Part shown: positions 9,321 to 63,057 of the stretch, piece after piece
How positions within the stretch are numbered: position 1 is the stretch's first letter
Layout of the letters: the number at the start of each line of letters is the position of its first letter
Source: a virus
Lineage: Duplodnaviria; Caudoviricetes
Reading direction: 5' to 3' (one strand)
DNA: 64,000 nucleotides
IMG/VR virus record: IMGVR_UViG_3300035520_001075
Location: 32,001 to 96,000 of that record
Position numbers and translations under genes: made by a program
Notes under the pieces: model-generated
The model's input: only the letters and a program-made list of their open reading frames with translations
Database searches by the model: none
What the model was told of the DNA's origin: nothing

Positions 9321-12104
9321 ATGATGAGACAGATAAAGGATTTTGTTGGCTTTAGATTTGGTAATGTCCATTCAAGTGAACTTAATTTATTAGTAGTATC
9401 TTCCAGTGATAGATATGAAAAGAATTTACTTCCAGACCCAACAGATTATACAACTGAAATCCCAGGTTCAGATGGAACTTATTACTTTGGACAAACCTAC
9501 AAAGACAGAACTTTTACTGTTAATGTTGCTTTTGATAGAGTAAGTGAACCAATCTTTAGAAAAATTTCTTAGTTATTTGCTAATGATAAACTTCAAGATT
9601 TAGTCTTCGATGAAATGCCTTTTAAAACTTACAAAGCAAAAATTAAATCTAATCCAGACTTTAAATTCATTTGTTTTACAGATAGAGATACTGGAGAACG
9701 AGTTTATAAAGGAGAAGGAACTTTAGTATTTATTTGCTATTTTCCTTATGCTTTTGGTTTTAATAAGTACGTTGTAAGAGCGGCAGACTTCTATAAGTGT
9801 GCTCAGCCGAAAGACATTATTATTAACAAACTTGAAGATAATCCATATAGAAAAAAGAAAAAGCCAAAGTTTTGGCCTGCTATTATAAAAGACCATTATA
9901 ATGTTGAATATAATATGAGAACTCCTTGGAAGGGCGGCTACCCTACAATAGAACAAGTTCAATGGGGAGAACTTTATTTTAAAGGCCCAGAAGATTCTGA
10001 GAAAAAAATGATTATTGATGTGCGTAATTATTGGAAGAATATCCCAGAATGGCAGGGAACAGCAAAGTTATTAACAACTCCTACTCTTGATTATGACCAA
10101 GAATTGATTTTTGCACCGCAGTTTTCAAAGTGCAAGTTTATTAATATGGACACTGGTTATTATACTGAAAATGATATGATGGGTAGTAGAATTTTAGTTT
10201 ATAATCCAGGTGATTTACCAATTGAATTTGAATTAAAAATGGAAGAGAATAAAAGAACTTTCTGGTCTTCAAGAATGGGCAATGGTTTTAGAATTAGTCG
10301 CTTTAATGTTGAAAGATTATCTATTGAACAAGCAGTAGATTGGACTGGATTAACAACATTAGAACAAGTAGATGATAAACCTTATAAATATGGTAATAGA
10401 TATTTTAAGTTAGACGATAGCGAACCAGATGATACAGAGCTTTTAAAAAATATTGATGAGTATACTAATAAGAATTGGTTGGAAGAAGACATTCTTATGG
10501 AAGAAGGAGATACTCATAATTATGGCTATTATGATAGAGAAGGTAATGAAGTTATTACAGACGTGATAGTAGATGGAAAAGAGGGTAATACTGCTTACAC
10601 AACTCCTAATGGGGCGGCCGCTAAAGAAATTGCATATAATTTACATTTAAAAGAATATCAAGATTCATTATATAATTTTATTGACGAAAAAACCGAATAT
10701 CGTTTATTAAAAGCAGCCCACCCTCATCACACTTATATTGCTGAGCCAATTCCTCGCCAAAAGCTTGGACACTATATCAAATTATTCTATTGGCAGTCAG
10801 AACAGCAGTTTAAAGATAACTCAAAAAAATTAGCAAACCTTTATCCACAGTTAAAGTTTGAAGATGGAATTAAGATTGCAAATAGATATGATGAGTTAAG
10901 AAGTCTTTGTATAAATGAAGATGAAGAATATGAGTTATATTGGGAAACTTTGAAAATGGCCATTCTTGATAAATACAAGGATTGTAATGTTTTTTCTGAG
11001 AAAACTTCTACATATTATGATTCAACTTATACTTATGAAGATTTTGTAGAGAGCTTCTTATATCACCCAATGGAATTTATTACAGTCGATACAGATAAGG
11101 AACTTGATTATGGTCAAGATACTTTAAATATCTATAATTATCCTCAATGGATTACAGAAGATTACTTAGAAATCGACCCATCAGCACTTGCTTATGATGA
11201 GGATTATAGAACTTATAATAAAACCGAAAATATGCCAGATGCACTTTTCCTTGACACAGAAGAAAGAATTCTTTTTGAGAATCAAAATCCAGATGACTTT
11301 TATAAATATAAACCTACTAAAATACTTTACAATGATTCTATTAAAAAAGGAAAATGGTTTAAGTTGCCGCCAGGTTGGAGCTTAATAGCAATTGAACCTA
11401 TTTCTGATGAGGAATATTGGGGTGGAAAACGTTGGTTAGATGCAAGACCTTTTGATTGGGGCTATGGCGGTGATGAGAATCGGAATCCACGAGAAGTTCA
11501 ACAGTTATTTGATGGCGTATATGATTATTGTGTTAATAAATTTCTCAAAAACTCAGAAGATGAGGGAACTTATTATAAAGAAGAAGCTTTTAGTCGAGAT
11601 AACGTAAATACATGGTTGGCAAAAGGCTATAATAATGGACTTTTTGATTTAAACGGTGGAAAGAATTCTCCAGCAGAAAAATCGTATATTAATAATGATA
11701 ATCAGCCAGTGTTAGACATAAATACACTTGATGATGAAGATAGAATGAAGATTAGGAATTGGTTCTTCTATTATAAGGAACAAGCGAAGTCAAAAAATGA
11801 TACGTTTGCTTATCAGCTCTATTGTAAAAGAGAAACACAAGCAGAATACTCTTTCTTAAAATTATTATATCGAGTTTGGAATAAAATTTCCCCTTACTAT
11901 TCTTGGACTGCAGGAAAAGGCGTTTTTGAAGATGGAGAAGATTTGGACGATAGCGGCCGCCCTAAGAGATGTATCAATGCTCATATCTCAGATTGGTGGT
12001 ATTATGCTTGCAACTATATGTGGGCAAATTTCCCTCCTTTGTATTGGGGACTTGCAGATTTATTAAACGGATTACAAATTAAATATGTTCCACTATTTTA
12101 TTAA
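9321..12104 (+). CDS. Distal tail protein (Dit-like) with a large insertion, about 927 aa
   Basis: Track ORFs 9321 and 9615 join through TAG 9570-9572. Dit-like N-terminus (F.FG...S..L, IPGSDG.YY, LVFDEMPFK.Y.AK). Directly follows the tape measure gene. Confidence 0.75.
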
Positions 12105-12115
12105 GAGGTGAGAAA

Positions 12116-21210: not shown

Positions 21211-22317
21211 ATGGCTTATTTTTATTATCCATTGGAGAATTATGTTCAAGGAAAATCTGGTGCTTATTATAATGGAGCAAAGACCTATGATGGGCACGGC
21301 ATTGGAAAATTAGATTTTCTCGCAAGTCGAGGAGACCCAGTATATAGCATGACAGATGGAACCGTGACGCACGCAGGAAAAGCGAATTCTGGCTATTAGG
21401 CAATTGTTATTGAAGCAACTGGCTATGCTGTATCTCCAATATATATTCATTACTGGCACACAGAGAATTATCAATTTGAAGTAGGATAGACAGTTAAACA
21501 GGGTGATTTAATAGCTTATGTTGGAGACGATGATGTCTCTGGACAACATTTGCACGTTGACTTTAGAAATGCAAGTATGCAGAAAGAGGAAAAAAACTTT
21601 ATAGGACCACAATTAAGTAGTTATACAGCTGAACAAAGCGAGGCTATTGAATTTTGGAAAGGGCAAGCAACATCTGCAAATGATTATCTTGGTTATTGCT
21701 GGGAAGTCTTTGCAACACCAGCACAAAAAATGTCTGGTGGCAATGGAGTTTTAAATATTAATAAAGATATTGATACTTATACTTATCTCCAACGAGCAGC
21801 AGATATATTGGGTAATGAATTTACAGATGCTAATATTATCGCTGGAATTTTAGGAAATTTTTGGCAAGAAAGCAAAGGAAATCCTTTTGCTTTGAGCCAG
21901 TCAGGCTATTATGGATTATATCAAACTAATGATAGTAATTTTATTCAAATAATGAGCAATAATGGCTTATTAAAATATTTTAATGGAACAGATACTCCTA
22001 AAGATGAACATAAGAAAAAATGCGTTGACTTAACAATGAATTATTTAATGAGCAATTGGAATGGCAGTTCTAACTATCCGAGTCAAGCAAAAAATGGTAA
22101 ATTGGTTTCTACAGAAAATATGACAGAGGCGGCCGCACAAGCAGAGCTTTTTGCAGTAATGATAGAGAGATGTGTCGGTGGCTCAGATAGCGTTCTATGT
22201 GCAAAGGTATAGGATTATATGAAGAAGTATTACAATGGAAAAATATATAGCTATCAAAATTTGAAGGAAAGAAGAGATGCTGCGGATTGCTTCATAAATG
22301 GAACAGCTCCAGCATAA
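21211..22317 (+). CDS. Cell-wall hydrolase: M23 peptidase plus phage tail lysozyme-like domain, 368 aa
   Basis: ORFs 21181 and 21550 join via TAG at 21397, 21487 and 22210. M23 motifs H....LD, VG*TVKQGDLIAYVG and HLH. Lysozyme-like motif IAGILGNFWQES.GNP..GYYGLYQ. Confidence 0.8.
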
Positions 22318-22860: not shown

Positions 22861-23292
22861 ATGGCTTATGCATATAATTCTAATAGCCAATTGCTGCAAA
22901 ATCAGAACAATCCTCAGCAAAATTATAATAATGCTCAAATGTTCCAACAGCAGCAAAATATTCAACCATTATTTCCTCAGCCGCAAGGTAATGTTTACAA
23001 TATTAATTCAACTCTTGAAGTTGCAAATGTTCCTGTTGGTGCTGGCATTTCAGTAGCTTTATGTTTAAATGAGGGAGTAATGTATATCAAATCAATGCAA
23101 AACGGCAATCCTCTATTTTGGGTTTATAAGATAGAGCCTTATAATGATTCTCCAAAAAATGAGGCGGCCGCACAAGAAGAAGCAACATCTCAATATCCTA
23201 ATTACGATGAACGCTTCTTGAAAATTGAAAAACAAATTGATGAAATTCAAACCAATCTTAAAAATCAAAAAGGAGGGGAATTTCAATTATGA
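22861..23292 (+). CDS. Hypothetical Gln/Asn-rich protein, gene 1 of the five-gene module
   Basis: RBS GAGGTG precedes ATG 22861. Q/N/P-rich N-terminus, coiled-coil C-terminus. Confidence 0.75.
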   Translation: MAYAYNSNSQLLQNQNNPQQNYNNAQMFQQQQNIQPLFPQPQGNVYNINSTLEVANVPVGAGISVALCLNEGVMYIKSMQNGNPLFWVYKIEPYNDSPKNEAAAQEEATSQYPNYDERFLKIEKQIDEIQTNLKNQKGGEFQL

Positions 23293-27802: not shown

Positions 27803-28730
27803 TACTTTTACTTTCAAAAGTTAATGGATTTTGCTTTAATAATAGTCTAATTTCACTATCGCTTTTATTCATTAGAGAAATAGCCTTGCTATCTTCTTTA
27901 TAGAAATTATAGTAAGATAACTGCGAATCTGAGTAATACCATTTAAAAATTTTATTAGATAGTTCATCTTGGACTTTGTAATCTTTAGATAATTTAAGTT
28001 GTTGGCGGCCGCCTATTTTTTTGAGATAAATTATTGTTTTTAAATCTTTTATAGGATGGCCGCCTTTGTAGAGAATTTTAATCGGTTTATCAATATTATT
28101 GATAATGAATGAACTATCATAATCAAAATCAGCTATTAATTCTCTATTCTTAAATGATTTAGAATAATAAGCAAAATCCTCGCATAGTTGTTGGTCTGAG
28201 AAAATTAAAGGATACAAGAAAATGAATTTGTGATTTTCATGATAATCTCTTAAAAAGTCTAATGCATTTGATTGTTCTATAAAATTATAGTCTGCAATAT
28301 AAATATCTTTTCTCTCTGGTTTAAAACCGCTAAAATCATTTGTTCCAACTCTTATATAAGAATTTTTCTGCATTTTATCTAAAAGTTTTTTATCTGCTAA
28401 TCTTTCCGTAAATGCTACATAAGGGAGATATGAAGGAGGGATTGCCGCAATTTCAGGAATTAAATTTGGATTTTTATGATAGAAGTTATACCCTAAGCAA
28501 TCGACTTTTTTATCACCTAAATCAATTTTAATTTTCTTATTAATTAAAGTATTTGGTTTCTCTTTGAAGACAAATACTTTATTAAAACGTTCAATACTAT
28601 CTTGCGGCCGAAGCATAGCCACGACATGATTATTCTAATAACAATAATTATAAATCTTCATTAATTCTAAATTGGGGTAGTTCTTTCCGCCACCCCATAG
28701 GTCTAAATCTAAAAAACCGTATGAACTCAT
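27792..28730 (-). CDS. Hypothetical protein (one TAG)
   Basis: RBS AGGAGGGAG precedes ATG 28730, in frame with track ORF 28622 across TAG 28637-28635. The N-terminus MSSYGFLDLDLWGGGKNYPNLELMKIYNY recalls PNL.LMK phage proteins. Confidence 0.65.
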
Positions 28731-28744: not shown

Positions 28745-31700
28745 TTATTCATCAATTTCTATTCTTTCTATTGCACTTGACTTAATATAGCCATTTTCGT
28801 CAATCTCTTCTATTTTTTCAAAGAGCGGCCATTCTGTATTTTTATATTTCTTTGGAACAAAAGTGTCTCCACGTCTTATTCCTGTTATAATTAATTTTGT
28901 ACCTTTTGTAAACCAAGACTTTTCAATAACGTGTTTTACTCCGTTATTATCTCTTTGAGAAATTTGTTTATCCCAAACAGCGTATTGATTCTTCCAAATT
29001 TTTACTGTGATAACTGAACCGTCTACTGTAAGAAGAATAATTTGACTTTTATTTTTATCTTTGTCAATTACCGTTCCTGCTATTCTATTTAATTGGAAAA
29101 TATTAATTTCAGTTCCTTCTTTTGTTTCAAATGAACGTTCAATTTCTGGCTCTGGATTTAAACAGCTAAAATTTGAGATTCCATAGGCATTATATTTAAT
29201 TTTTGCTAATTCATGTGGGTGATAGTAAAAGCTAAGGCTTTCCATTTCCCACTGGGATATTGAGCCGCCTGCATACTTTTGATAGGTTTCGTCCAATAAT
29301 GAAGAATTGAGTTTGTTGAGAATTTCTTCTTGATTATCCTTAAACCATTCTCTTATTTTATCCATTCCTTTTTTATAGATATTATCCCAAATATTTTGCT
29401 TAATTGATGCACTTTGATTATTGCCAACATTAACATCTTCTAATAAACTATCATCATAATTTTCATTAAAGAAATTTAAAGCAATCTCATCTAGAATATA
29501 ATATTGACCTTTCTTAAAAGATTTTAAGTACTTATTAAAATTAAATAATCTTTTTTCATAATCAAACTCTTGCGGTAAAAGATTTTTATCAATTAACATC
29601 TGCATATTTTGTAAGGTAATTCTTTTCTTTTTATCACTAACAGTATCTAAATATTTCTCCATTATTTTAACTCTATTGCCATTATAGAGATTATCAAAAG
29701 CTCCCGACTTAATTAAACTAATCATTTGGATTTTATTAATTTTTACTTTGGATAGAAAGTCTTCTAAAGAAGTGTAAGGTCTGTTATCAAAAATTTCATA
29801 AACTAATTGAGTCCCAATTCTTGTGATACCTTTCATTCCATAAATTATCGCATTATCTTTTATTGAAGGAATGAATATTAAATCTGATTTATTTATATCT
29901 GGTGGGAGAACTTTAATTCCTTTTGAGATTGATTCACCTATTGCTGCGGCGATTTTGCCATAATTAACAGTTTTATTCCTTTTCTTTTCATCATTATCTT
30001 CATCATTAAAATCAGATTCTAATAAATCTGAACCACCTGCGTTGACTATTAAACAAGCACAATTCCAATAAATTTCAGGAAAATTTGTTGCTAAGTATAA
30101 GGTTTGAATGCCTACAAACGAATAAGCCAAACCATGCGTATGAAATATAAAATTTCATTACTGACTATTTTTTAAACGTTTTACAATGATGACTAATTCA
30201 TTAACGTTTACACTATTTCCAGTTATGTATCAATAATAACTGTACTTCTCATCTCACTGAGAATAGTCGATACAATATTTTTAAGACAGAGTACCTAAGA
30301 TTTTTTGATTTTTTTCTTTATTTTTGTTTAGAGGATAATATAAATTTTTATCAACCCTACTTTTACCACTATTAATTTTTTTTATAGTTGAATAACAAAT
30401 ATTATATTTTTTAGAAATCTCTAATAAAGTCATATTTGAAAAAATAATATCATATTTACATTTTTTTGACCAACTATCTTTACTCCTATCATATAAGGGA
30501 TAATTATTATTTGGGTTAAACCATTTATCTCCTTTATTAATCTGAGATAAATAACTTCGTGAGATATGATATTCTTTTGCTATTTCAGTTAAAGAACGAG
30601 AAGTCTTTAGTTCTTCAATTATTTTTTCTTTTAATTCTTTACTATATTTTCTACTTTTTGAACCTTTTAATAAAGGATAATTTAAGTCTTCTCTTTTAAA
30701 ATTCCAACCAGTATTGATATTTTGAAGAAAACTATCTTTTAAAAAGGGATATTTTTTCTGAATTTCAAAATATTGATATTTTTCACATAACATTCTCTGA
30801 ATGTCTCTAACTTGTTCTTCATTTAAAATTTTTGACGCTTTACAACATTCTTCAAAAGTTTTCTTTGGCTTCGCGCAACCATCACCACCAACTGTAAGAT
30901 TATATCCATTTTGTGTGGTTAATGTCTTAAAATAATCTATAAAGAATATTTCTCTTTCATTTAAATAATCTCTACCCATTTCATCAGGAATTTCTTCTAT
31001 AATTTCAAATTTAAAATTTTCCCATCCATATTTTCTAATTGCATTATGAAAAGGGAGTTTATAACTATGACTTTTAGTATTATAACTATCTGATTTATGG
31101 CCTCTTTTTCTTTTTTCAATATTGTTAGTTTGGCCTATATATGATTTGGAATTTATTTTATTAGTAAATTTATATATATAAAGCATAATTTCACCTCCTT
31201 TTCTTAGTTAAATTTAGTCTGTCTTAAATTTATCACGAGATTTTACCCTCGTTAGCCATATAATTTATCTTTAGTCCTCAGATAAAATATTTTATATAAC
31301 CTCATTGATAAAATGATTAAGTGTATTAACCCCATTACAAGGTTTTGCAAACGCGTATGACATTTGAGGCATCATAACTGTTTCCCAAACATATTCTCCC
31401 ATCGCTACAGTCGGGCATTGAGAAATAAATTTTTTTCTTAATTCTGGAACTTTTTTTACTTGTTTTTTGGAGACAATTTTTCTGGCTACATTTGATTCGG
31501 CTAAAGTAAAATGTGCTACATTTTTATCCATACAAATTAACATCAAATCCTCTTGGCTAGCTGGTACACCAAAATTAGGAAGATAATATGGTTCTAATAT
31601 CTTTATTTCTTCTTCTGTTAATCCAGCATCTCTTACTTCTTGATACCATAAATCCATATTGTTTTTTAATCTACAATATCTGTCGAGAGGACGTTCTTTT

Positions 31701-33868: not shown

Positions 33869-33899
33869 AATTTCCTCCTTTTCCTTATTTTCTATATTT

Positions 33900-33928
33900 A
33901 TTATATCATAATTTAAAAGAAAAGTCAA
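33900..33928 (-). promoter_or_regulatory. SigmaA-type promoter of dnaE
   Basis: TTGACT-17-TATAAT with TG. 27 bp are identical to the promoter at 35529-35555. Confidence 0.8.
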
Positions 33929-42467: not shown

Positions 42468-43742
42468 TTAAAGAATTTCAGAATCTTCTAACCACTCGGC
42501 TGCCTGTGCAGTAAAACTGCGTTCAGTTTTAACAAGATTAACAGCAGCGAAGATTTTTGAATATAATTTTGAAAGTCTTAATTTAAAAAGAGATTTCAAA
42601 CCATTTTTATTCTTAAAAGTTTTCTTATCAATTTGATAGAGGCTTCCATCAAAGAATATACGAGTTCCTTCACCGCATCTTGCTATTAAAAGCTTAATAT
42701 GGGATTCTGTTAAATTTTGAGCTTCATTTACAATAATAATACTATTATTAAAACTTCTTCCTCTCATATATCCTATTGGACATATTTCCAATTTTTCATC
42801 TTGAATTAATTTTGAGACATAATCAATTCCAATTAAATCTGTTAGTGTTCCAAACATTGGAGCTAATTTATCTAAAGCTTCTCCAGGCAGAGCACCTATA
42901 TCCATAGAGTCTTCTGTATAAGAGTTGTTAGGTACGTAGACTATTTTCTGGATATTTTCTTTTTCTAATTCTTGGAGGGCATAATTGTTTAGGATAAAGG
43001 ACTTTCCTCGTCCTTGCTTGCCGCCAGCACAGATAATTGAAATTTCTTTATTATTTAAAGCTTCAAATAAACACATCTGTTCCGTATTTCTTGGAACAAT
43101 ACAATTAATCCATTGATTCTTGATTTTAAGATTATCAACATAATGAAGTTTCTTATTTCGATAGACGAAAGTTGCCATTACTTCATAATCTTCAATTCCA
43201 TATTTATCCTTAATAACAGAATTCTTATTTTTAACAATTAAATATTGATTTTCAAACAGCTCTATATCCTCAGGCTTTTCTCCTGTTTGAAGAATATTAT
43301 CCAATATTTCATTATAACCATTCTCATCAAATTCCAGAATTAAGTATTCAATTCCAGTATAATTTTCCTTAATACTATATCCCTTAGTACTAATTCCATG
43401 AATAATAGCTTTAACCTTTAAGTAAACATCGTTAGTAAGTAAAATCCCATTAACTTTTTCTGTTATTTTAAGTAGCTGGTCATCAACTGGAATTTTCTGC
43501 CAATCTTCATTCTCACATTCATAGAACCAAGTTAAATTATCCAAATTATTTGAAATATAAACTGCTGCTTTTCTTGCGGCCGCCGCCGTCTCAGGATTAA
43601 TATTCTTTTTAAGTCCATCTAATTCCCTTAATACGCTTGTTGCAATTATCAATTTATTATCTGTCTTCTCAACTATTTGTGGATATTCTAAAAGTACACA
43701 AGTATCTATTACATAATTCTCAGCATTTTCGTAAGTTTCTAT
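42468..43742 (-). CDS. phoH: PIN-PhoH (PhoH2-like) ATPase, probably starting at ATA
   Basis: PIN motif YVIDTCVLL lies upstream of the track start. Also VLRELDGLK, LLTND..L, Walker A GGKQGRGKS, MRGRS and IVNEAQN. RBS AAGGAGG lies 8 nt before in-frame ATA 43742. Confidence 0.8.
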   Translation of the reverse strand: METYENAENYVIDTCVLLEYPQIVEKTDNKLIIATSVLRELDGLKKNINPETAAAARKAAVYISNNLDNLTWFYECENEDWQKIPVDDQLLKITEKVNGILLTNDVYLKVKAIIHGISTKGYSIKENYTGIEYLILEFDENGYNEILDNILQTGEKPEDIELFENQYLIVKNKNSVIKDKYGIEDYEVMATFVYRNKKLHYVDNLKIKNQWINCIVPRNTEQMCLFEALNNKEISIICAGGKQGRGKSFILNNYALQELEKENIQKIVYVPNNSYTEDSMDIGALPGEALDKLAPMFGTLTDLIGIDYVSKLIQDEKLEICPIGYMRGRSFNNSIIIVNEAQNLTESHIKLLIARCGEGTRIFFDGSLYQIDKKTFKNKNGLKSLFKLRLSKLYSKIFAAVNLVKTERSFTAQAAEWLEDSEIL

Positions 43743-45063: not shown

Positions 45064-45954
45064 TTAAAATCCTAAGTCTCTTTTGACTGATTTGCTCTGA
45101 GGCTTACTTGAAGTCTTACTCTTTGCAATAAGCTCTTCATTACGAGCAGAACGTTCGCTAAGTACCTGCTTAACTGAATCTGCATCATATGAAAGAGATT
45201 CTTCAAGACCGCAAGGTGAACCGCCTGTGATAAGAAGTTCCTTTCTTGACTCTGTTCTTGAACGAGTGATTGGTTCTCCAAATCCCTGCTCTTCTGTCCA
45301 AGTGACGATTTTCTTGGTCACGTTAATTCTGCCAGTGACCTGAACTGTATCACCAACGTTCCAGTTAGTTTCAATGTAATCTCTCTTAGAACCATCAGCT
45401 ATCAAATCAATACGATTTGCCTTGCCGTTATAACCAATAACGATAAACTGAACAATTGCTCTACCTGTTTCCTCGCCTTCTCTATTATATTCTGGAATTA
45501 TTTTTCCAACTACTCCAGAGAAAATGAACTTCGCAGCCTCTTCATCTGAATCTCTTTTGTTGTTAATAAAGTTAGAAGTAAGCTGCCATGTAGAAACAAG
45601 CTGTCCATCCTTTGAAACAAAAGGATTCTCTTCAATCTTGGCGGAAACCGTTACCCTCGATGCCTGACTTTCGTCATCAGCGGCCGCCAGAGAAGTAAGT
45701 CTATCCTTATAACTTGCAATTATATCATAGATTTTATTATCTGAACCATCTTTCTTAGTTCTCATTGAAAACATTTTAATAGGAACAATATCTTCTGTCA
45801 TCTGACCATTTATTTCCTGATCAATTTTAACATTTGCTGTTCCTCTTATCCATTTTCTGCCGTCTTTTGTAATTCCTTCTACTATATCAAGTTCATTCAA
45901 AATACCGCTTACATATACTTCATTTTTACTTTCTACTTTTCTAATATCTAACAT
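45064..45954 (-). CDS. Single-stranded DNA-binding protein-like (tandem OB folds)
   Basis: NEVYVSGIL and VGDTVQVTGRI resemble OB-fold strands. Located next to the Sak4-like ATPase. Confidence 0.55.
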   Translation of the reverse strand: MLDIRKVESKNEVYVSGILNELDIVEGITKDGRKWIRGTANVKIDQEINGQMTEDIVPIKMFSMRTKKDGSDNKIYDIIASYKDRLTSLAAADDESQASRVTVSAKIEENPFVSKDGQLVSTWQLTSNFINNKRDSDEEAAKFIFSGVVGKIIPEYNREGEETGRAIVQFIVIGYNGKANRIDLIADGSKRDYIETNWNVGDTVQVTGRINVTKKIVTWTEEQGFGEPITRSRTESRKELLITGGSPCGLEESLSYDADSVKQVLSERSARNEELIAKSKTSSKPQSKSVKRDLGF

Positions 45955-46939: not shown

Positions 46940-49900
46940 TCACTCCTTTATTAAATCAATAGCAAAATCTCCCTCACCTAAATCAATACCCTTAACTCCA
47001 ACGGCTGTTCTTGATAAAGGTCTTAATTCAGAAGTTGAAAATTTAATGCATTTCTTATTTACTATAATAATTATATCACAATCTGTTGAAATAGCCAAGC
47101 ACTTTATTATTTTATCATTGTCTTTTACATCAGATATTCGCTTACCTTTAATTCCTCGATTACAAGTTGGAAAATCATTAAGACTTGCTTTTTTAATTAT
47201 TCCTTCTTTTGAGAGGGTTATTAGATATTTGTCTGTTTCTTCAACTAAATGAGCATCAATTATAAAATCGTTCGTAGCCAAATTCATTGCTTTTACACCA
47301 GCGGCCACTCTGCCAATAGCATTAATTTCTGTTGAGTTAATTATTATATAGTTGCCATTATTAGATAATATTCCCATTCGTTCGTTATCTAAAAATAGAA
47401 CTTTTACAACTTCATCATCTTCTTTGAGATTAATTGCTTTGATAGACTTTCCTCTACGAATATTATATTCTTTCGCCTCGGTTTTCTTTATTAAGCCTTT
47501 TTTAGTTAGGAATACATAATATTTCTTAGAGTCTTTCTTATTAAATGATGTAATTGCAGTTGGGCGTTCATCACCATTAAAGTCAAATAATTGATTTATA
47601 TTAATTCTACCATTAATTGGCAAATCGTCTATTGAAAGATGATACATTTGACCTTTATTGGAGAATACTAATAGAGAATTAAAGTTGTCATCTCTAATTG
47701 TTTTAATAATTGCTTCATTATTAGCTAACTTAATTTTCTTACCTGAGCCGCCACGTTTTGAAGTTAAAAGAGTTGTAGTTTCTTGGGTGTAGATATTACC
47801 AAGATTTGTATAGTGGATTAAGAGCTCTTTCTTTTCAATTGGTTCTGCATCTTCTTCTTCGGAAGTAAAGTCGAGATTTATGCATTTGGTTTTTCTTTCA
47901 TCTCCATATTTATTTTTAATTCTTAAAATTTCGTCTATAACAATTTTTTTAAATTTATTCTCATTTGTAAGAATAATATTAATATCATTAATATTATTAT
48001 TCAATTCAGCTCTTTCATCAATTAATTTTTGTAATTCTAAATTAGCAAGTCTTGAAAGTTTTAAATTTAAAATTGCTTGACTTTGCTCTTCTGATAAATT
48101 AAAATTTTCTTGTAATTTTATTTTTGCAAGAGATGTTGAAGGGGATGACTTAATAATTTTAACTACTTCCTCAATATTCTGAATAGCGATAATCAATCCA
48201 TCTACAATATGAAGTCTTTGTTTTAATTTCTTTAAGTCAAATTCATATGATTTTCTAAGGACGTTGCAAAGATGTTCCAAGTATGTTTCCATCATTTCTT
48301 TCCATGTAAAACACTTAGGATATTTCCCATCCGCGAGCATATTCATATTGATTCCATAGCTACCCTGTAGTAAAGTGTGCTTATATAATAATTTAGTAAT
48401 TCTGTTTACATTAGCGTTCTTTGATAATTTTATAACTATTTTTACTCCGTCAAGGTCTGTTCCGTCAAATACGCTTTCAATACCATAAATTTTCCCTTCA
48501 TCTATTGCATTCTGTATAGAAACTGTAGCATTAGAAGAAAATACCATATAAGGAAGATTGGTTGCTATTAATTCATTTGCATCTTCATCATATACCATAT
48601 CTGCTCTAATAATAGCAGCCTTTCCAGTTCCTCTTTTATGACTTTCTTTAACTTCTTCGGAATTAATTATAGTTCCTCCTGTCGGAAAATCAATTGGACA
48701 GTAAATTTCATCAAAATCAATCTCAGGATTATTTAATAATTTTATTAAAGCATCTGAAACCTCATTTAAATTATGAGAAGGAATAGAAGAAGCTAAACTT
48801 ACTCCAATTCCAAAGTTTCCATTCACTAAACTATTTGGAAAAGTTGTTGGGAAATAAGTTGGATATTCTTCTTCTTCCGTATAATTAAGTTTCCATTTAT
48901 CAATAGTTTCCTTTTGTAGCAAATTCGTCATTTCATCTGCAATTTCGCCGCTTCTCATCTCAAGATATCTATCTGCTGCATAATCATTGTTGTGCATTAA
49001 ACTGCCATTATTTCCATGAGTATCAATTAAAGGATAACGCAAAGAAAAGTCTTGACTCATTCTTACAGCATTTCCATAAATACTTGCATCCATATTATTC
49101 CCACATTTCTGTAGGTATCGACTATATCTTATCTATAAAATAGAAATACCCATTTCAGAGAAAATAGTTCTCTTACTCCTTCGTTCCAAGGATAGTCTGT
49201 ACAGGTTTTAATTTATTTCTTTATAGGTTTTTCTTGTTAGCATTTGCCTAAAAGCACTATAAGAGCATTGTATATTATATTTATCATAAAGTATTTTTGA
49301 CTGATGTCCATTATTGTTATACTCTTCTCGATACTGCTTGACTTCATCATCTGAGAATATTCTTCTAGCCCCTTTTTGCTTAAAAACTCTAATTGGATAG
49401 GACATATTCTCGTGCTTATAAGTAATACCATGATTAATTTCAGAAATAGCATTAAAGCAAATATTATATCTTTTAGCTATCTCTCTATCACTTAAAATAT
49501 TTTCTTTTAATAATTTATATATTTCTAATACTTGCTCTTCTGATAACTTTGCCCGAGAAGCTTTTTCTCCTCTGGCAACTTTGCAAACTTTTTTCACCGT
49601 ATTATATAACAAATTTTTATCATATTTATTAATTTCCTCTTGCTCTTTTTCTTCCAGTTCAGAAAGTTTACATTCACAGAGAATTTCAAAAGTAAAATTA
49701 TCAATACCAAAAGTATACATATCATTATATAATTTATTAATTCTTTTATCATTATAAGTTTTACCAAATCTAAAATGATATTCTTTTCTATCTTCTATAT
49801 GAGAAGAGCTTCCTATGTAAACCATATTATTTAAAAGATTAGTTATTTTATAAATTCCAACCATTTTTTCACCTCCTTTATTTTAGTACAAAAAAGAAAT

Positions 49901-50235
49901 AAATTAATTCCCACGGGATTAGCATAGAAACCCTTAGCTTTCCCCGTTAGCTTTTACACCCTCATTACTGAGAAAAGGTATAACAGGCAATATTATTTAC
50001 CATGTGGACTGAACATCATTGCTGCTGATTTTGTAGCTGTGGCTTTTCTTCTTTTGTTCTTAAAAGTATTCTTATTTTTATACTGAGCGTATAAAATAAA
50101 ACGTGCTCCTGTTTTTAATCCATCTCTTGCATCTGGTAATGCTCTTGTTTGAATTACATACGATGCATAAGGAACATAAAAATTAGGAAGAGCATCAGAT
50201 ACTTCTAATTCTCCATCTATAACAATTTCTCTCAT
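46940..50235 (-). CDS. gyrA: Type IIA topoisomerase subunit A (gyrase A-like; spliced, 795 aa)
   Basis: RALPDARDGLK in exon 50235-49999, joining exon 49090-46940 as SPHG|DASIY. Catalytic AADRY, PDF-like IDFPTGG, and C-terminal beta-pinwheel repeats. Confidence 0.9.
49091..49998 (-). mobile_element. Group I intron in gyrA carrying a GIY-YIG gene
   Basis: GCTAACGGGG...AATCCCGTGGG before the ORF, GTACAGACTA and AAGATATAGTC after it. Terminal G at 49091. Removal restores PHGD. Confidence 0.85.
49208..49864 (-). CDS. GIY-YIG homing endonuclease (intron-encoded)
   Basis: MVGIYKITNLLNNMVYIGSS and LYN motifs, with a C-terminal HTH. RBS AAGGAGG. Confidence 0.88.
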   Translation of the reverse strand: MVGIYKITNLLNNMVYIGSSSHIEDRKEYHFRFGKTYNDKRINKLYNDMYTFGIDNFTFEILCECKLSELEEKEQEEINKYDKNLLYNTVKKVCKVARGEKASRAKLSEEQVLEIYKLLKENILSDREIAKRYNICFNAISEINHGITYKHENMSYPIRVFKQKGARRIFSDDEVKQYREEYNNNGHQSKILYDKYNIQCSYSAFRQMLTRKTYKEIN

Positions 50236-50265
50236 ATAATCACTCCTTTTTTTTACTATATATTT

Positions 50266-50294
50266 ATTATATCATAATTATAACAAAAAGTCAA
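50266..50294 (-). promoter_or_regulatory. SigmaA-type promoter of gyrA
   Basis: TTGACT-17-TATAAT. Confidence 0.75.
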
Positions 50295-50297
50295 ATA

Positions 50298-52393
50298 TTA
50301 ATCAAGGGCATCAAAGTCTGCATTTTTACTAATATATTTTTTACGTTCTTCAATATTTTCTCCGAGCAATACATCAAAATAATAATTTGCTTTTTCCGCA
50401 TCTTCAAAACTAAAAGGAATATATCTGCCTTTTTCTGAGAAAAGTGTATTCTTAAAATCTTCTGGTTCAAGCTCACCAATTCCTTTTGCTCTTAAAATAT
50501 CACCATCTGGCAATGATTCAAGTTCTTTTTCTGTATACGCATAATAAATTTTATTCTGCTTAGTGGTGACTTTAAACAATGGTGTTTGTCCCCAAAATAT
50601 CTTTTTTTGTCTTAATAATTCTGGATAATATTTATACATAAAAGCCAGTAGCAAACACATGATTGAGTAACCATCTTCGTCTGCGTCGCATACAAAGACA
50701 ATTCTTCCATATCTCATTTTTTTCATATTAAAATTATGATTAAAGCCTGCTCCAATAGCAGTATGAAGATTTTTTAAAACTTCATTTGAGAATTGCTCAT
50801 CTTCTGTACTTTTTAATACATTAAGGATTTTACCAGTTAATGGAAAGGCGGCTGTATAATCACTATTTCTTGATTTTACTATGCCTCCAAGGGCTGACAA
50901 TCCCTCCACTACGATTAGTTGAGATTTTTCATCATGATATCTACAGTCAGCAAGTTTACCAGCTAAAACAGTCTTCTTTCTTAATTCTTTACTGATTTCA
51001 CTATCTTGCTTTAAAGCATTTTCTCTTGCTCTATCCGCTGCTTTTTCAGCCTTCTCAAATCTACTCATCATCTCAATAATATTACTACATTCTGGAATTC
51101 TTGAAAATTCTTCTAAGCCCTCTTTTAGAGCTTTAGTCGTTAGAGTTCCTAAAGAAGGATTTAAAATATTATTTTTTGTTTGATTAGAAAATGAAGGCTC
51201 TCTAACCTTACAATTAATAGCATAAACCAATCCTCGTCTTATTGATTCTGGAGAAAAAGATTGATTACTAATTTTCTTAATTGAATTTGTAAAAGTTCTT
51301 TTTGCCGCAGTTATAGGAGAGCCGCCAGAGCAACAATAGAGTCCATTTGCAAAAACATAACTATTTTCTGTTCCACCTGTCCAAAGAAAAGCAACTTCTA
51401 CTTCATCAATTCCATCAGTAGCGGAACAAATAATTGGCTTTTTCATTAAAGGCTTCTTTGCAATATCTACTATGAAATCTGCAATTCCATGTTCTGAATA
51501 GAATTCTTTTTTCTTTATTTCTTTATTATTATCATCAACTGCAGTAATATTAAAATAAATACCTTTATTGAGATAAGCAATGTTCTTAATTTCATCACAA
51601 ATTCTATCAAAAGAAAAATTCTCTGTGGTATTAATAAAGACTTCACTATCTGGTTTAAAAGTAATTGTAGTACCAGTTGGAAGAGTTGTTGACTCTTCTT
51701 TATATTCCATTAGTATACCTTGTTTAAATTTTGCTGTCGCCGCCGTCCCATCTCGTCTACTTTGAACAGTAAACTCATAAGAAGACATACAAACAGCTGT
51801 TCCTCCAATCTTACTATTCAGCAATACTCATTAATTTATTGCTCGTTAATAACCGCTTATAGTTTCCTATAAGAATAGACTATATCTTCTGTGGATTCTT
51901 TTTCGAGTTATTTAACTCTACTCTACTTTGATATTATTGATATCATTTCGATAGTCGTTGAACATTCCCCAACTTGTTATTACAGGGGCTTTGCTGCTGA
52001 TTCTCTTTTAAGAGTTCCAGCAATTAAAAATCTTTTATAACGGCTATGGTATTAACCGTTTAAACCACTACTATTTTTATAAGAATTTTTATCAAATTTA
52101 CCGCCAGTATGGGCTTCTGTAAAAATAGCAACAAGAGTATTATGTCCATTTTCGCAAGAGAATGGAATTCCACGTCCTTCATCTGTTATGCTAACATATC
52201 CGCTATTTTCATTAATCTGGATATCAATTTTATTTCCATATCCAGCCAAAGCTTCATCAGTAGAGTTATTAATAATTTCTTTTAAAGCTTGATACATTCC
52301 TTCTAAATCTGCACTGCCTAAATACATAGGAATCTTTTCTCGCATTGCTTCACGAGTATCAAGATGTCTAATACTATCTGCATTATAACTCAA
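50298..52393 (-). CDS. gyrB: Type IIA topoisomerase subunit B (gyrase B-like; spliced, 616 aa)
   Basis: EIINNSTDE, DEGRGIP and HTGGKF in exon 52393-52055, joining exon 51809-50298 as SGLNG|IGG. TOPRIM motifs VEGLSA, PLTGKILN and DADEDG. Confidence 0.9.
51810..52054 (-). mobile_element. Group I intron in gyrB (no ORF, 245 nt)
   Basis: P1: exon AACGGT pairs with GCCGTT. Core AATTGCTGG, AATCAGCAGC, GTTCAACGACTA and AAGATATAGTCT. Terminal G at 51810. Confidence 0.87.
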
Positions 52394-58574: not shown

Positions 58575-58988
58575 TCAAAAACCTCCATGTGATATAATAT
58601 AATCATTATGATATATATCCCTCACACGATAAGAAGGTTCTGTTATTATTTTGCCCAAAGTTAATCCTTCTAAATCCCAATAAGGAATTCTTATCAATGG
58701 TATATTATGTAGTATGCAATATTTGTTTTTACGTCTATCCCATTCTCGTTGCTTTTTAAAACCGAAAATGTTCTTATGAAAATGTTTTGTAAATTTGTAG
58801 TGTTGAATCCCATCTACTTCAAGGAGAAATAATATTTTATTATTCTTATAAACAGCAAAGTCAAATCTTAATGGAACTTGCTTTTTACCTACTAAATCAG
58901 TAAATGATATTTCCCTTTTAAATGCTATTCCGTTCTTATTAAAAATATCAATAAGTTTTTGTTCACCTTTAGAAGTCTTAATACTCAT
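58575..58988 (-). CDS. PD-(D/E)xK nuclease (DUF559/Vsr-like)
   Basis: Motifs SKGE, LRFDFAV, LEVDGIQH, D..KNKYC and IPLIRIPYW. Start ATG 58988. Confidence 0.75.
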   Translation of the reverse strand: MSIKTSKGEQKLIDIFNKNGIAFKREISFTDLVGKKQVPLRFDFAVYKNNKILFLLEVDGIQHYKFTKHFHKNIFGFKKQREWDRRKNKYCILHNIPLIRIPYWDLEGLTLGKIITEPSYRVRDIYHNDYIISHGGF

Positions 58989-59781
58989 CTCTATCTCCTC
59001 TTCTAATAGGCTTTTCTCTGAATTCTGTAGGAACTGGATAAGGCGGCAAAACGCAAGGAAAACCAGTAGGGATTTCTTTTGGTTGTTCCATTTCCTTAAC
59101 TTTATGCGGCTCAATATGATATGTTGCCACATGATGAAGGTGTGGATAATCTTCTGGTCTTTTCTTTTCTTTATTAAATTCGTAGAACTGACAATCTAAT
59201 TCAGCAGTGAAGTAGGTTGTGTTAATAAGGTCTAACTCTTTTCCGTCTTTTTCTTTTTTCTCCATATCTTCTCTCCAAACTAATAAGTTAATTTGGAAAT
59301 TCTCTACGGTTTCATCGGTTAAAGTATATTTTAAATGATAAAAGATTTCCTTGCCTTCACTAATATCATATTCATTTGTCTTATCGTTCCAAATAGCAGT
59401 TATTATTGCTAAATAATCTTCAAAATCACAGAGGAATTGTATAAAGTCTTTATTGTGATATTTAACTTCTTTTATTGAGCCAGATTCTTTCTTATCCTGT
59501 ATTGTGGCGGCCATATCAAAGGTAAAATAATCAGCATAGTTTTCTAAATCAAATCCTTCAAAGTTTGGCAGCGGTCTTGGAAAATACTTAGATTTGTACC
59601 ATTTAAGCTCTAAATCCTTATTTGGATTACCAAGCAAATTTTCAATTAATGAAGCCGCTTTTAAATAATCCTTACGAATTGAACAAATAGGAAACTTCTT
59701 ACAAGAATAACATTTTGGCTGAACTTTCGTAGGCTCTGGCGGCACATTATTAGCTGGCTTTAAATAACAATTATTTCTCAT
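58978..59781 (-). CDS. Hypothetical protein with a Cys cluster
   Basis: CYSCKKFPIC near the N-terminus, Pro-rich ends. RBS AAGGGGTG. Confidence 0.7.
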   Translation of the reverse strand: MRNNCYLKPANNVPPEPTKVQPKCYSCKKFPICSIRKDYLKAASLIENLLGNPNKDLELKWYKSKYFPRPLPNFEGFDLENYADYFTFDMAATIQDKKESGSIKEVKYHNKDFIQFLCDFEDYLAIITAIWNDKTNEYDISEGKEIFYHLKYTLTDETVENFQINLLVWREDMEKKEKDGKELDLINTTYFTAELDCQFYEFNKEKKRPEDYPHLHHVATYHIEPHKVKEMEQPKEIPTGFPCVLPPYPVPTEFREKPIRRGDRDEY

Positions 59782-59862: not shown

Positions 59863-60996
59863 TTAATTATTTTCAATTTGCGACCAATCACAGTCGGCGG
59901 CCGCTTTATCAGGACGTTCTTGGACTATTTTACCATGTCTTAAAGAATAGTGTCCTGATATATATTCAAGCTCCATGCAAGTAAGTTCATAGACCTTATT
60001 AAGGTATTTCTCAGGATTTTCAACAATTCCTTGCTTCATTTCATCTGTAATTCCAGAAATCCAGCCTATACGAATTGGTTTTCCATCTTTCATTACTGAG
60101 AACGAAATTGCACTTGCCCAGCCATAATAATAAGCTTTTGTAATTGGAGTTAAAGCTCTACCTTGGTAATAATCATAGTACATATTTTTATTAATCTTTT
60201 CTCCTGTTTTATCATTAATCCAGTAATTCCAATTCTCAATTTCTTTGCCATTATATTCTTTAGTAGGGCTCTTATATTCTCCATCAATAAAAGCGTCTAT
60301 TGTCTGTTCTATTTCCATTTTAACTTTAAGAGTTTTTCTACTTGTTCTCTTGCCTGGCTCAGCAATTCCGTTCTTTTTGTAAAGTACCATTCCTTCGTCG
60401 CCACGTTTTAAAATTTCACCTAATTCATTCCAAGCCTCTTCTCCTTCTAAATATTTAGCTATATCTATATATTCTTTTCCCTTACTGGCGGCCGCTATAA
60501 AAGTATCTAAATATTTTCTAATTCTATCTTCAAATTTAGTATTGAGTAGACTTTTTCCATTATAAGCCCAGACATCAAACACATAGTAGTGGAGTTTCTC
60601 ACCTTTTTCTTGTCTATCAAGAGCTTTATTAAGTAAACACCCAAGTATTGTTCCTACTTTACGACTTCCTCTTTGTTCAGGAAGATATAATTCTCCAAGT
60701 AAACAAGTTCCATTAGGTAGACTATCAAAGAATTCTTGGCACTGAGGTGTCCATTCTATTTTATTTAAATATCCTCCTTCTACACTTTCAGAGCGGCCTT
60801 GTAATCTCATGTTTCCATTATTATCTTTTATAAATCTTGCATAGTGGCCATCATTCTTTAGAGCTCCAAGGTACTGTTTAGAGAGGAACATTTGTTTTGT
60901 TTCTTCTTTTTTATTACCTTTATAGGATTTAGCAAATGACCAATAACGTTCTGCAGGAAGTTCTTCAAAATCTACATTATCAATTATCATACTCAT
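59863..60996 (-). CDS. lig: ATP-dependent DNA ligase
   Basis: Motif I KNDG, III LLGELY, IIIa YYVFDV, IV EGMVL, V LKVK, and VI SLRHG..RPDK. Confidence 0.85.
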   Translation of the reverse strand: MSMIIDNVDFEELPAERYWSFAKSYKGNKKEETKQMFLSKQYLGALKNDGHYARFIKDNNGNMRLQGRSESVEGGYLNKIEWTPQCQEFFDSLPNGTCLLGELYLPEQRGSRKVGTILGCLLNKALDRQEKGEKLHYYVFDVWAYNGKSLLNTKFEDRIRKYLDTFIAAASKGKEYIDIAKYLEGEEAWNELGEILKRGDEGMVLYKKNGIAEPGKRTSRKTLKVKMEIEQTIDAFIDGEYKSPTKEYNGKEIENWNYWINDKTGEKINKNMYYDYYQGRALTPITKAYYYGWASAISFSVMKDGKPIRIGWISGITDEMKQGIVENPEKYLNKVYELTCMELEYISGHYSLRHGKIVQERPDKAAADCDWSQIENN

Positions 60997-61112: not shown

Positions 61113-61913
61113 GTGAACGGCTACGAGCGGAGCGAGTAGCGTTCACCGCCACTCGATGCACAACTTGTTGTGCATCCTGTGGCGTTTTGTGTAGGCATAT
61201 CAATGTAGGCACATCAGTATTGAAAAGACGGCATTAAATGTTGTATGCCCTATAGGCTACTGATTTTTTGATATTTCACCCATCACAAGAAATAAAAAAA
61301 AGAATTATTGAAATTCTTTATTTCACTTTCAACTATCGTTAATTTAGTTTCTTACGAAATCTCTGATACTTAACAGTTCAATTAACAGTTGCCCTTATAG
61401 CGTTCTCCTTTAAGGGAAAGTATTTTCTAAAACTATCGCCCCAACCTCAACTTTTATTATAATACGTTTATAATAGGTTTTAACTACCTTTTTGACGATT
61501 AAGATTACGTTGAGATTCATAACCGCTTACGAGTTATTAGGCATACTAAATATTTAATCTTAATAGAAAATAAATGTACCCTCAAATACAGAGTAAGAAT
61601 TGTTCTCAAATTCTTAAACGAGTAGATTTACGCTGCAAGGCTTACCAAACCATAAAGACGTAGAAAAACAGAGCCTATCATCTCGACAGTCCCTGTTTCC
61701 CTTTTTGATATCGCAGTGTCTTTTACAGTGTCATCACTGCGTTAAGGTATAATCTAACTTTAATCTCCACAGAGAGTTGAACATTGACCTTAAATTTGAA
61801 TGTACAGTGGTATAATCCTTTTGTTATATCAGTTCCATTCTATTCAATTGTTAGCCGTAATTTACGGAGATAATCAGGTTTTAATAACCAGAAATGAGTT
61901 TTTCTCATTTATT
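61113..61913 (-). ncRNA. Candidate large structured non-coding RNA
   Basis: A region of about 950 nt without a credible gene, directly downstream of a consensus promoter. It has many local hairpins and several long-range complementary pairs. Confidence 0.5.
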
Positions 61914-61919
61914 ATAATA

Positions 61920-61948
61920 ATTATAACACATTTTTATTTAAAAGTCAA
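61920..61948 (-). promoter_or_regulatory. SigmaA-type promoter firing into the non-coding region
   Basis: TTGACT-17-TATAAT with TG, followed by TATTATAATAAATGAGA. Confidence 0.8.
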
Positions 61949-61953
61949 GTAGT

Positions 61954-62508
61954 TTAGTATAATGACTTGGCGGCCGCAGCAGTTTTAATTACAGAATAGA
62001 TTTCTTCCCAATCATTACATCTATGAATAGAGGGGTCAATAACATTCTTATTCCACGGATAAGCAAGACAAATTTTTAATGGTTGAGTTGTACTAAAATT
62101 GGATAAGCAATCATCTATTAAAGCATCACCAATGACCATACTTTTATCATAACAAACAATCAGATGCTTTCTTATATCCATATAAGGGAAAATTCTTTGG
62201 AGATAAGATTCTTTTTTAGGAGCATTCTTCATTTCTGTTTTAGTACAAAAATAAATTTCGTGTCCATCATTAAATAATTTTGCCATATATTTCTGAACAT
62301 TTGGTACTAATTTCATTCTATTCCATGTTCTTTTATCAAGAAAATAATGATAGAATGTTTCCTTATACTGCGGCTTGACAAAATTTTCGATATTATACTT
62401 AGTAATTTTATCTACAGTAAGATTATCTTCACTATCTTCATTATAAACATCTAATACTGCTGTAGTTAAGTCTCCTACTACATTATCAACATCACATAAA
62501 ATTCTCAT
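61954..62508 (-). CDS. 5'(3')-deoxyribonucleotidase (HAD, NT5C-like)
   Basis: Motifs ILCDVDNVV, K..YL...FP, DK......LIDD and PWN. Confidence 0.85.
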   Translation of the reverse strand: MRILCDVDNVVGDLTTAVLDVYNEDSEDNLTVDKITKYNIENFVKPQYKETFYHYFLDKRTWNRMKLVPNVQKYMAKLFNDGHEIYFCTKTEMKNAPKKESYLQRIFPYMDIRKHLIVCYDKSMVIGDALIDDCLSNFSTTQPLKICLAYPWNKNVIDPSIHRCNDWEEIYSVIKTAAAAKSLY

Positions 62509-63057
62509 TTAGTCCTCCCATCTTAGCCTAATAATACTACAATTTCTCATTTTTCCATCTACATATCTTTTTGATTCTACTACATCAAAGCCTTTAGAGA
62601 TAATTTCTTTTTTGACAGTATTCCATTTTAAGATATTGCCTCTTTTATCTTTGATTTTAAAGAATTGACTTAATTGGTCTTTATCTTCTTTAAATAATGG
62701 CTTTTCAAGTAAAGAAGTTATCATTCTAATAATTTCTTTTTTGGAAGGCGGCAAAGCCTTTTTTGAGTCAAAAATATTCTGGGCGGCCGCTATCTTATTA
62801 TAGCCATTATTAATAGTATCGTACTTTTCAATATAATATTTTTCTTTATCACTTAGCTCTTCTTCTTCACATAATTCTATAATAGAAAAAGTAAAGTTAT
62901 TAGAATTGTGATAAAGATTAAAATGGAATTCGTCATCAATAGAAGTAGAATATTTACCTTGTTCTAAATGCTCATTCCATCTACGAAAAATATCAATTGA
63001 TTTTCCAATATACTTCTTTTGAGTAGTTTTATTTTCTATACAATAAATACCAATCAT
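62509..63057 (-). CDS. Free-standing GIY-YIG endonuclease
   Basis: MIGIYCIENK...KYIGKS..I.RRW.EH, E.YYI and GYN. Own promoter at 63089-63117. Confidence 0.8.
   Translation of the reverse strand: MIGIYCIENKTTQKKYIGKSIDIFRRWNEHLEQGKYSTSIDDEFHFNLYHNSNNFTFSIIELCEEEELSDKEKYYIEKYDTINNGYNKIAAAQNIFDSKKALPPSKKEIIRMITSLLEKPLFKEDKDQLSQFFKIKDKRGNILKWNTVKKEIISKGFDVVESKRYVDGKMRNCSIIRLRWED

Follow-up and report, generated by a model that had tools for sequence, protein, structure and literature searches.

NotI-site excess in an AT-rich phage genome as a derivative of dispersed G+C-only words

Iterated words of the HIP1 type (HIP, highly iterated palindrome) have been without an explanation for decades, the leading idea being that of a cognate methylase. 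HIP1 is not the only such word: GCsGC is an alternate highly iterated palindrome of Cyanothece PCC 7822, in which it is accompanied by GCsGC methylases (Elhai, 2015; PMC4390886). Here we analyse the NotI-like octamer GCGGCCGC in 64,000 nucleotides of DNA from a virus of the Caudoviricetes (the window). They are bases 32,001–96,000 of the virus record IMGVR_UViG_3300035520_001075 (in the following G000), which is complete, has terminal repeats, measures 157,483 bp and contains 31.3% G+C; open reading frames (ORFs) were called with TAG read through. An initial annotation of the window had described the octamer as strongly over-represented, had likened it to HIP1 and had proposed methylation-coupled repair as one of its possible causes. 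The observation is confirmed, and it is re-described in terms of the five-base word GCSGC (GCGGC or GCCGC; S is G or C and W is A or T). The likeness to the HIP class holds, GCSGC being itself the alternate word of Cyanothece, and the proposed cause is largely rejected.

There are 14 exact copies of GCGGCCGC in the window, as compared with 0.0185 expected at zero order and a mean of 0.01 in dinucleotide shuffles, and the whole 157-kb genome has 26 against 0.055 expected. The 13 starts listed initially are all exact and a 14th copy, at 28005–28012, had been overlooked; the earlier estimate of the base frequencies was close, as G and C, put at near 0.15 each, were measured as 0.144 and 0.161 in the window, and the near-matches given at 14228, 15868, 18304, 28604, 31830, 39146 and 47301 are all present. 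That the octamer is itself the selected word was not borne out: GCGGCCGC consists of two overlapping GCSGC and is a derivative of these, not the unit. An order-5 Markov model reproduces the octamer (54.6 expected vs. 52 observed on both strands) and an order-4 model, which is based on 5-mers, leaves it only 1.9-fold above expectation, so that it is accounted for by its 6-mers. The word GCSGC occurs 138 times in the window (10.5 expected) and 370 times in the genome (29 expected), which is 12.7-fold and still 6.8-fold above a second-order Markov model, and by z-score it is the top 5-mer against both zero-order and codon-shuffled controls. Nearly all G+C-only runs of at least 7 nt are tiles of the form (GCS)nGC, of which the genome holds 266 single, 46 double and 4 triple ones. 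Among the double tiles, GCGGCCGC is found at 26 sites and GCGGCGGC/GCCGCCGC at 24 sites, and the CGCG-bearing GCCGCGGC is rare.

The excess resides in the DNA and goes beyond what protein sequence could explain, as had been argued initially from sites in genes of both strands that encode AAA, SGR, GGR or RGR, which translation confirmed. When synonymous codons are shuffled within genes, 76 GCSGC are expected and 297 observed (z = 28.8), and for GCGGCCGC the numbers are 1.3 and 23 (z = 21). An Ala codon standing before GCN is GCC or GCG in 71% of cases vs. 15% otherwise, Gly after NGC is encoded by GGC in 61% vs. 21% elsewhere, and the first Gly of Gly-GGC pairs is GGC in 50 of 60. The word occurs in all feasible reading frames. 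DNA outside ORFs of at least 60 amino acids is even more enriched (observed/expected, O/E, 17) than DNA within ORFs (12), which is also the case in the relatives G028 and G006. The pressure seems to reach protein sequence, since Ala-Ala dipeptides are 1.75-fold over expectation in this phage, 1.6-fold in the nearest complete relative and 0.9–1.4-fold in others. Ala-Ala accounts for more than half of the core-gene sites, followed by Gly-Gly, and no association of the sites with conserved residues or nearby indels was found.

GCGGC and GCCGC are equally frequent all along the genome regardless of gene orientation, and neither strand nor end polarity of GCSGC was seen along it. The flanks add little information to the 5-mer (only G/T at position −1), and the GC content around the sites is back to background within about 8 nt. 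Spacing genome-wide is Poisson-like (coefficient of variation 1.05), by which regular spacing is rejected; hairpin or terminator pairing is also rejected, only few sites lying less than 50 nt from one another. Outside the window, in the right arm of the genome (G000:C1:147536-156960, + strand), approximately nine copies of an intergenic element stand between small ORFs. Its form is ATTACGAAATTGTGAACT, 4–9 nt, GGCGGC, gACTyAATACCTACT...ATAGGAATT, with GCGGC always in the same orientation, and the element resembles a promoter/operator that is repeated, or an iteron.

The sites in the window, together with one ORF to which the initial annotation had linked them, are as follows:

1–64000, both strands, genes and spacers: 138 scattered copies of GCSGC, which form 113 tiles (90 single, 21 double, 2 triple)
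10614–10621, + strand gene: GCGGCCGC double tile encoding Ala-Ala-Ala
11953–11960, + strand gene: GCGGCCGC encoding Ser-Gly-Arg
22129–22136: GCGGCCGC encoding Ala-Ala-Ala
23164–23171: GCGGCCGC encoding Ala-Ala-Ala
28005–28012, − strand gene: GCGGCCGC encoding Gly-Gly-Arg
37094–37101: GCGGCCGC within the run GCGGCCGCGGCC, encoding Arg-Gly-Arg in the RecJ-like gene
40299–40306: GCGGCCGC encoding Arg-Gly-Arg in the DnaB-like helicase gene
41046–41053: GCGGCCGC encoding Gly-Gly-Arg in the DnaB-like helicase gene
43576–43583: GCGGCCGC lengthened to the triple tile GCGGCCGCCGC, encoding Ala-Ala-Ala in a PhoH-like gene
45680–45687: GCGGCCGC encoding Ala-Ala-Ala
59897–59904: GCGGCCGC encoding Ala-Ala-Ala in the ATP-dependent DNA ligase gene
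60488–60495: GCGGCCGC encoding Ala-Ala-Ala in the ATP-dependent DNA ligase gene
61970–61977, − strand: GCGGCCGC in the last codons (3′ end) of the NT5C-like gene 61954–62508
62783–62790: GCGGCCGC encoding Ala-Ala-Ala in a GIY-YIG gene
58575–59132, − strand: ORF formerly called Vsr-like, a homing/HNH-type endonuclease (PHROG 9084, E = 1.8e-22; PHROG 559, E = 8e-22)

Which G+C-only blocks a genome contains is also shaped by what it avoids. Genome-wide, CCGG is present in 3 copies (93 expected), GCGC in 9 and CGCG in 13, GATC in 12 and CTAG in 22 (452 expected for each, i.e., about 0.03–0.05 of expectation), and TCGA, CATG and GTWAC are also depleted. In coding sequence, as compared with codon-preserving controls, the counts are 3 vs. 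50 for CCGG, 4 vs. 68 for GCGC, 11 vs. 39 for CGCG and 85 vs. 175 for GCWGC (z = −12.6); short palindromes are thus depleted relative to such controls, as is characteristic of restriction-site avoidance. The purge of GATC and CTAG is extreme, while the phage carries only two methylases. GGCC is overall 1.2-fold, with just 36 copies outside a GCSGC context where about 93 are expected. Each genome's vocabulary of G+C blocks follows its own purge of restriction-type 4-mers. For example, G006 avoids GGCC and CGCG and has CCGGC as its top word (6.7-fold), G025 is rich in GCGC words, a 163-kb phage contig of the metagenomic bin G032 has 12 GCCGCGGC and one GCGGCCGC, and L011 has 12-fold GCSGC with no GGCC where 15 are expected. 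In the phage studied here CCGG, GCGC and CGCG are nearly absent, which makes GCGGCCGC the surviving palindromic double tile. Conversion of GCWGC to GCSGC at Ala-Ala could cover at most about 90 of the approximately 220 excess coding sites.

The phage encodes a split PolIII alpha, a DnaB-like helicase, a primase, a RecJ-like exonuclease, a Sak4-like annealing protein, an ATP-dependent ligase, NrdD and its own gyrA and gyrB. By its replication genes it is placed near SPbeta and large Enterococcus phages (PolIII identity 38–41%), and among the named phages searched there was no close relative. A PolIII alignment search gave 80 loci in viruses and another 34 in assemblies of prokaryotes, together approximately 110 loci of relatives. 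GCSGC is 4–16-fold enriched in most loci with at least 46% PolIII identity, relatives thus sharing the excess; among G+C-only 5-mers it ranks first in 51 of the 80 viral loci. In whole genomes of relatives it is 9.0-fold (G028), 6.1-, 5.6- and 4.7-fold, and G+C-only runs of at least 8 nt are 6–11-fold in whole genomes of the clade vs. 1.2–1.5 in outgroups, the blocks being flexible in sequence with few homopolymers. A subgroup at 50–51% PolIII identity is low (1.3–2.8-fold; L038 at 0.7). Outgroups at 37–42% identity and SPbeta-like prophages of Paenibacillus, Lysinibacillus, Bacillus, Sarcina and Clostridium have 0–3-fold, SPbeta and Enterococcus phage VRE9_3 about 1-fold, and distant prophages no excess (0–0.8).

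Several relatives were also found as single contigs in metagenomic bins, the labels of which are Erysipelotrichaceae, Bacillales, Bacilli, Mollicutes or Clostridium. In the non-phage contigs of these bins there are 25 GCSGC vs. 23.5 expected, and the phage contigs are 5–14-fold enriched. In the 1.5-Mb bin G032, for example, the 163-kb phage contig accounts for 21 of the 23 double tiles, and in bin G034 7 of 12 lie within 55 kb. Mimicry of the host is rejected, as the co-binned bacterial contigs are unenriched; the bins may not be the true hosts. Bin membership is no proof of a host, but none of the AT-rich bacterial DNA sampled shows the excess. A genome scan for the host with the adenine deaminase of L011 found nothing; this gene is a phage auxiliary gene. 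An Atlas search for the host gave Bacillota only. Whole phage genomes of the clade have thus been binned into bacterial species-representative metagenome-assembled genomes (G032:C1, 163 kb, in the Erysipelotrichaceae bin; G034:C8; G035:C1; G036:C3), and GCSGC density cleanly parts these contigs from the remainder of the bin. G033:C1 (4.6-fold) and G035:C3 (6.2-fold) are enriched as well and may be further phage contigs.

A second strain (G003), which is 99% identical over 83 kb aligned and differs at 831 positions, allows mutation and selection to be compared. The single-base differences are transitions in 92%. The two strains share 188 GCSGC and differ in 29, of which 12 are exchanges between GCSGC and GCWGC. 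Differences between S and W amount to 3.34% per G/C column within the motif and to 3.04% outside (p = 0.58), whereas a selection-drift equilibrium at 12-fold enrichment predicts a turnover in the motif of only about 0.22 of background. In orthologues with 54% amino-acid identity only about 9% of the sites are at the same position. The lack of strain-level constraint together with the turnover of positions favours an elevated rate of gain over site-wise purifying selection. For polarising gains and losses, strain lineages were sought in the collections searched and in a metagenome scan; there are only these two in the collections, and no close strain came from the scan. Within the G003 cluster the differences are 0–4 bases. 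G003 also has several insertions of 0.3–1.1 kb relative to G000, which are likely mobile introns or endonuclease genes.

The explanation that we prefer, tentatively and as a reading that could well prove wrong, is that the excess of NotI sites arises incidentally from two processes which act on the DNA itself and are superimposed, the first of which would be kept going by gain-biased substitution. Both the accumulation of blocks and the purge are evident from the counts given above. In the first process, a clade of SPbeta-like phages from gut and rumen, which are large (about 115–200 kb), rich in AT and encode gyrase, gathers short G+C-only blocks, in all frames and in non-coding DNA, avoiding homopolymer runs and with GCGGC/GCCGC as the favourite word. 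In the second, each genome purges the short palindromes that are presumably cut by the restriction enzymes of its hosts. Since in this phage CCGG, GCGC and CGCG are nearly gone and GCWGC is scarce, the remaining G+C blocks are (GCS)nGC tiles, GCGGCCGC is tolerated, and the product of a clade-wide trait and a local purge is the excess of NotI sites. Rather than by site-wise purifying selection, methylation-coupled very-short-patch repair or copying of host composition, the first process would be upheld mainly by substitution with a bias towards gains that stems from the phage's own replication or repair: changes from A/T to G/C would arise or persist approximately 8 times more often where a G+C word is thereby completed than elsewhere. 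With modest confidence we favour such phage-intrinsic substitution over site-wise selection. It should be kept in mind that several points weigh against it. The strain comparison is unpolarised, being based on two lineages, and its differences are partly unfiltered polymorphism, so that weak selection on density could remain. Of the 24 single-step strain differences at the motif, 12 are exchanges between GCSGC and GCWGC, and because GCWGC itself is counter-selected, part of the local GCSGC excess could be selective. The 1.75-fold Ala-Ala excess indicates a pressure able to change proteins, with which mutation and selection agree equally well. The analysis turned up no enzyme, and no property of a polymerase, to which the bias could be ascribed, and it may be questioned whether the bacterial bins are the true hosts of the phages.

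The main functional rival is a Chi-like one, in which a protein reads GCGGC or G+C blocks generally and selection holds their density high; the blocks would attenuate host AddAB/RecBCD like Chi, thereby also limiting the supply of CRISPR spacers and Argonaute guides, or would mark phage DNA as self. We regard this as rather unlikely, although it has to be taken seriously. The clade is deep, and the density has been kept throughout it although the positions of the sites change; like Chi, the word is rich in G and C, in a genome rich in A and T, and the 5-mer GCGGC shares GCGG with the Chi sequences of B. subtilis (AGCGG) and S. aureus (GAAGCGG). The fixed orientation of GCGGC in the repeated right-arm element indicates that it may be read by one or more DNA-binding factors, the Ala-Ala excess is in line with selection, and Chi-rich phages are known (PMC12315714). 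On the other hand, the strains reveal no site-wise constraint, the genome has neither strand nor end polarity, the flanks are uninformative except for the G/T at −1, co-binned bacterial contigs have an O/E of about 1 (which counts only as far as the bins are true hosts), and the favoured words of relatives differ (CCGGC, GCGC-rich), which argues against a single conserved reader. Furthermore, this phage has Sak4/RecJ-like recombination genes of its own, a module that Chi-rich lambdoid phages lack (PMC12315714). A physical role is improbable, in which the G+C-only blocks are duplex-stability clamps in an AT-rich genome that is highly supercoiled by the phage gyrase. It would agree with blocks that are flexible in sequence yet poor in homopolymers, with a signal in density rather than position, and with gene content. 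In a comparison of eight complete genomes, those enriched have several genes that the outgroups lack, namely gyrA and gyrB (each interrupted by introns or homing endonucleases), next to them a small winged-helix protein of the MarR-like kind, and furthermore a PNK-HD protein, an NT5C-like protein and one uncharacterised protein. Of these, gyrA, gyrB and the adjacent MarR-like gene are the main DNA-transaction genes particular to the enriched clade. However, this correlation rests on one phylogenetic origin, some clade members have gyrase but merely 1.3–2.4-fold GCSGC, and the AT-rich Bacillota phages 949, Tsamsa, FADO, AR9 and 9183, which encode gyrase or topoisomerase II, have 0–13 GGCGGC vs. 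160 here. The binding/cleavage motif of gyrase extends over about 130 bp and its flanks have a 10.5-bp phase (PMC6379681); such phasing is absent around the sites here. That the sites are gyrase sites is rejected, as the GC content returns to background so quickly, a 10–11-bp periodicity is absent and independent gyrase phages are unenriched.

The cause proposed initially, a phage C5 methylase acting at GCNGC/GGCC whose sites are ratcheted up by methylation-coupled T:G repair (Vsr-like, or the G-5mC-directed mismatch repair of Elhai), is highly improbable. The C5 methyltransferase whose search had been suggested does exist: the genome has one, outside the window (G000 117,323-118,249). Its presence, the link of the GCsGC excess in Cyanothece PCC 7822 to GCsGC methylases (Elhai, 2015; PMC4390886) and the tolerance of GGCC inside tiles with depletion outside, which would fit protective GCSGC/GCNGC methylation, are in its favour. 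Among 26 long relatives, however, 10 of them at least 90% complete, none has a C5 methylase, and several of these have 5–9-fold GCSGC; the 163-kb phage contig of bin G032 is also without one and is enriched 9–14-fold. Homologues (52–57% identity) occur in phages with 12-, 2.3- and 0.4-fold GCSGC, and SPbeta, whose methylase is known for marking GCNGC and GGCC, has no excess; between its MtbP and the C5 methylase of this phage, which is private to its species, the alignment is confined to the catalytic motifs. The T-containing precursor words are at a normal level, the deamination products GTSGC/GCSAC and GCSGT/ACSGC showing no depletion against codon-shuffled controls (z −0.7 to +2.5), and contigs of candidate hosts are not enriched. 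The suggested link to a Vsr-like nuclease falls away, since the Vsr profile (PF03852) has no match in the genome and the ORF at 58575–59132, which is without Pfam Vsr match and without PDB relative, is a homing/HNH endonuclease by its PHROG matches at E of about 1e-22. N6/N4 methylases are found in just 4 of 27 genomes and are rejected as a clade-wide alternative. There remains the suspicion of a coding or composition artefact, that is, a preference for codon pairs or dipeptides or mimicry of the oligonucleotide usage of the host. It draws on the predominance of Ala-Ala and then Gly-Gly at core-gene sites and on the general avoidance of GGAGG-type words within genes. We consider it extremely unlikely, because the excess outlasts synonymous shuffling, is stronger outside ORFs and uses every usable frame, and because SPbeta, VRE9_3 and co-binned bacterial contigs are under the same coding constraints without showing it.

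Some observations concern the genes mentioned above. An NPPY-motif amino-methyltransferase (PHROG 18657; window 33925–34911, − strand) is the immediate upstream neighbour of PolIII alpha. It is confined to this species and its 99% strain, about 100 related PolIII neighbourhoods being without it, and as a private gene it is rejected as a cause. The replication genes are in pieces parted by homing-endonuclease ORFs or introns (window 28745–33928, 36560–38381 and 46940–52393): PolIII alpha in 31292–33928 and 28745–30130 with a GIY-YIG ORF (30281–31186) between, the RecJ-like gene in 37935–38381 and 36560–37639, gyrA in 49993–50235 and 46940–49093 with a GIY-YIG ORF (49208–49864) between, and gyrB in 52052–52393 and 50298–51824. 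With aragorn a tRNA-Gln(UUG) and one tRNA-like gene with an irregular anticodon loop were found; neither matches a GC-rich codon, and tRNA supply for such codons is therefore rejected. The 172-kb contig L010 (ERZ27256817), from a recoded phage in which TAG is read as Q, has a C5 methylase 57% identical to that of this phage and only 2.3-fold GCSGC. A related 182-kb rumen phage contig (L011/L022; ERZ28653742) encodes an adenine deaminase, two xanthine/uracil-type permeases, a nucleoside deoxyribosyltransferase, a gene like PAPS reductase and a pair of C5 methylases beside its gyrase; as a purine-salvage set this is unusual for a phage.

As to its meaning, it is conceivable, albeit doubtful, that the clade's own machinery writes or reads short G+C-only words, either through a mutator or repair bias of the replisome or through a protein that reads GCSGC density. 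A mutator would have a context-specific bias from A/T to G/C, and a reader would tell phage DNA from the equally AT-rich DNA of the host. If true, the HIPs of cyanobacteria would have a counterpart that is borne by viruses and needs no cognate methylase. The abundance of an alternate-HIP word in phages mostly lacking a C5 methylase, with candidate hosts lacking the word, uncouples the phenomenon from methylation as well as from the chromosome of the cell; and because phages are small, fast-evolving and easily recoded, they offer a tractable system in which biased mutation and a reader protein can be told apart. GCSGC density, which is 40–80-fold higher in phage contigs of the clade than in co-binned bacterial DNA, could be used to flag phage contigs in bins.

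Among known systems, the very-short-patch repair of E. coli by Dcm/Vsr (CCWGG up, CTAG down) is likewise an oligonucleotide excess ascribed to biased repair and not to function. In contrast to its signature, there is here no Vsr gene and no loss of T-containing one-off words, and the enrichment is approximately 10 times larger than very-short-patch effects. Restriction-site avoidance, as found in phages, explains the scarcity of GATC, CTAG, CCGG, GCGC and CGCG, the deficit of GCWGC and which blocks survive, but it removes words and alone is unable to create a 12-fold excess of GCSGC. With the Chi-rich lambdoid phages (Zheng et al., 2025; PMC12315714) there is in common a short GC-rich word enriched by density and not by position. 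Those phages, however, have no recombination module, and what is enriched in them is the known Chi of the host, clustered towards the ends, whereas here a Sak4/RecJ-like module is present, polarity and clustering are absent and the word varies among relatives. Closest is the HIP class (HIP1, GCGATCGC; PMC4390886), with which the phage shares the very five-base word of Cyanothece, composed of G and C only, a comparable density (about 2,350 GCSGC per Mb vs. 1,000–2,000 per Mb for HIPs; PMC4390886), the occurrence in genes and spacers independent of frame, and the position of an extreme outlier among words of equal length. It differs in that the word belongs to a phage lineage and not to a bacterial chromosome, co-binned bacterial DNA being without it; in that 26 of 26 relatives have no cognate methylase, which every HIP genome examined by Elhai has (PMC4390886); and in that GCSGC is the peak of a wider family of G+C-only blocks, whose membership shifts with the restriction avoidance of each genome.

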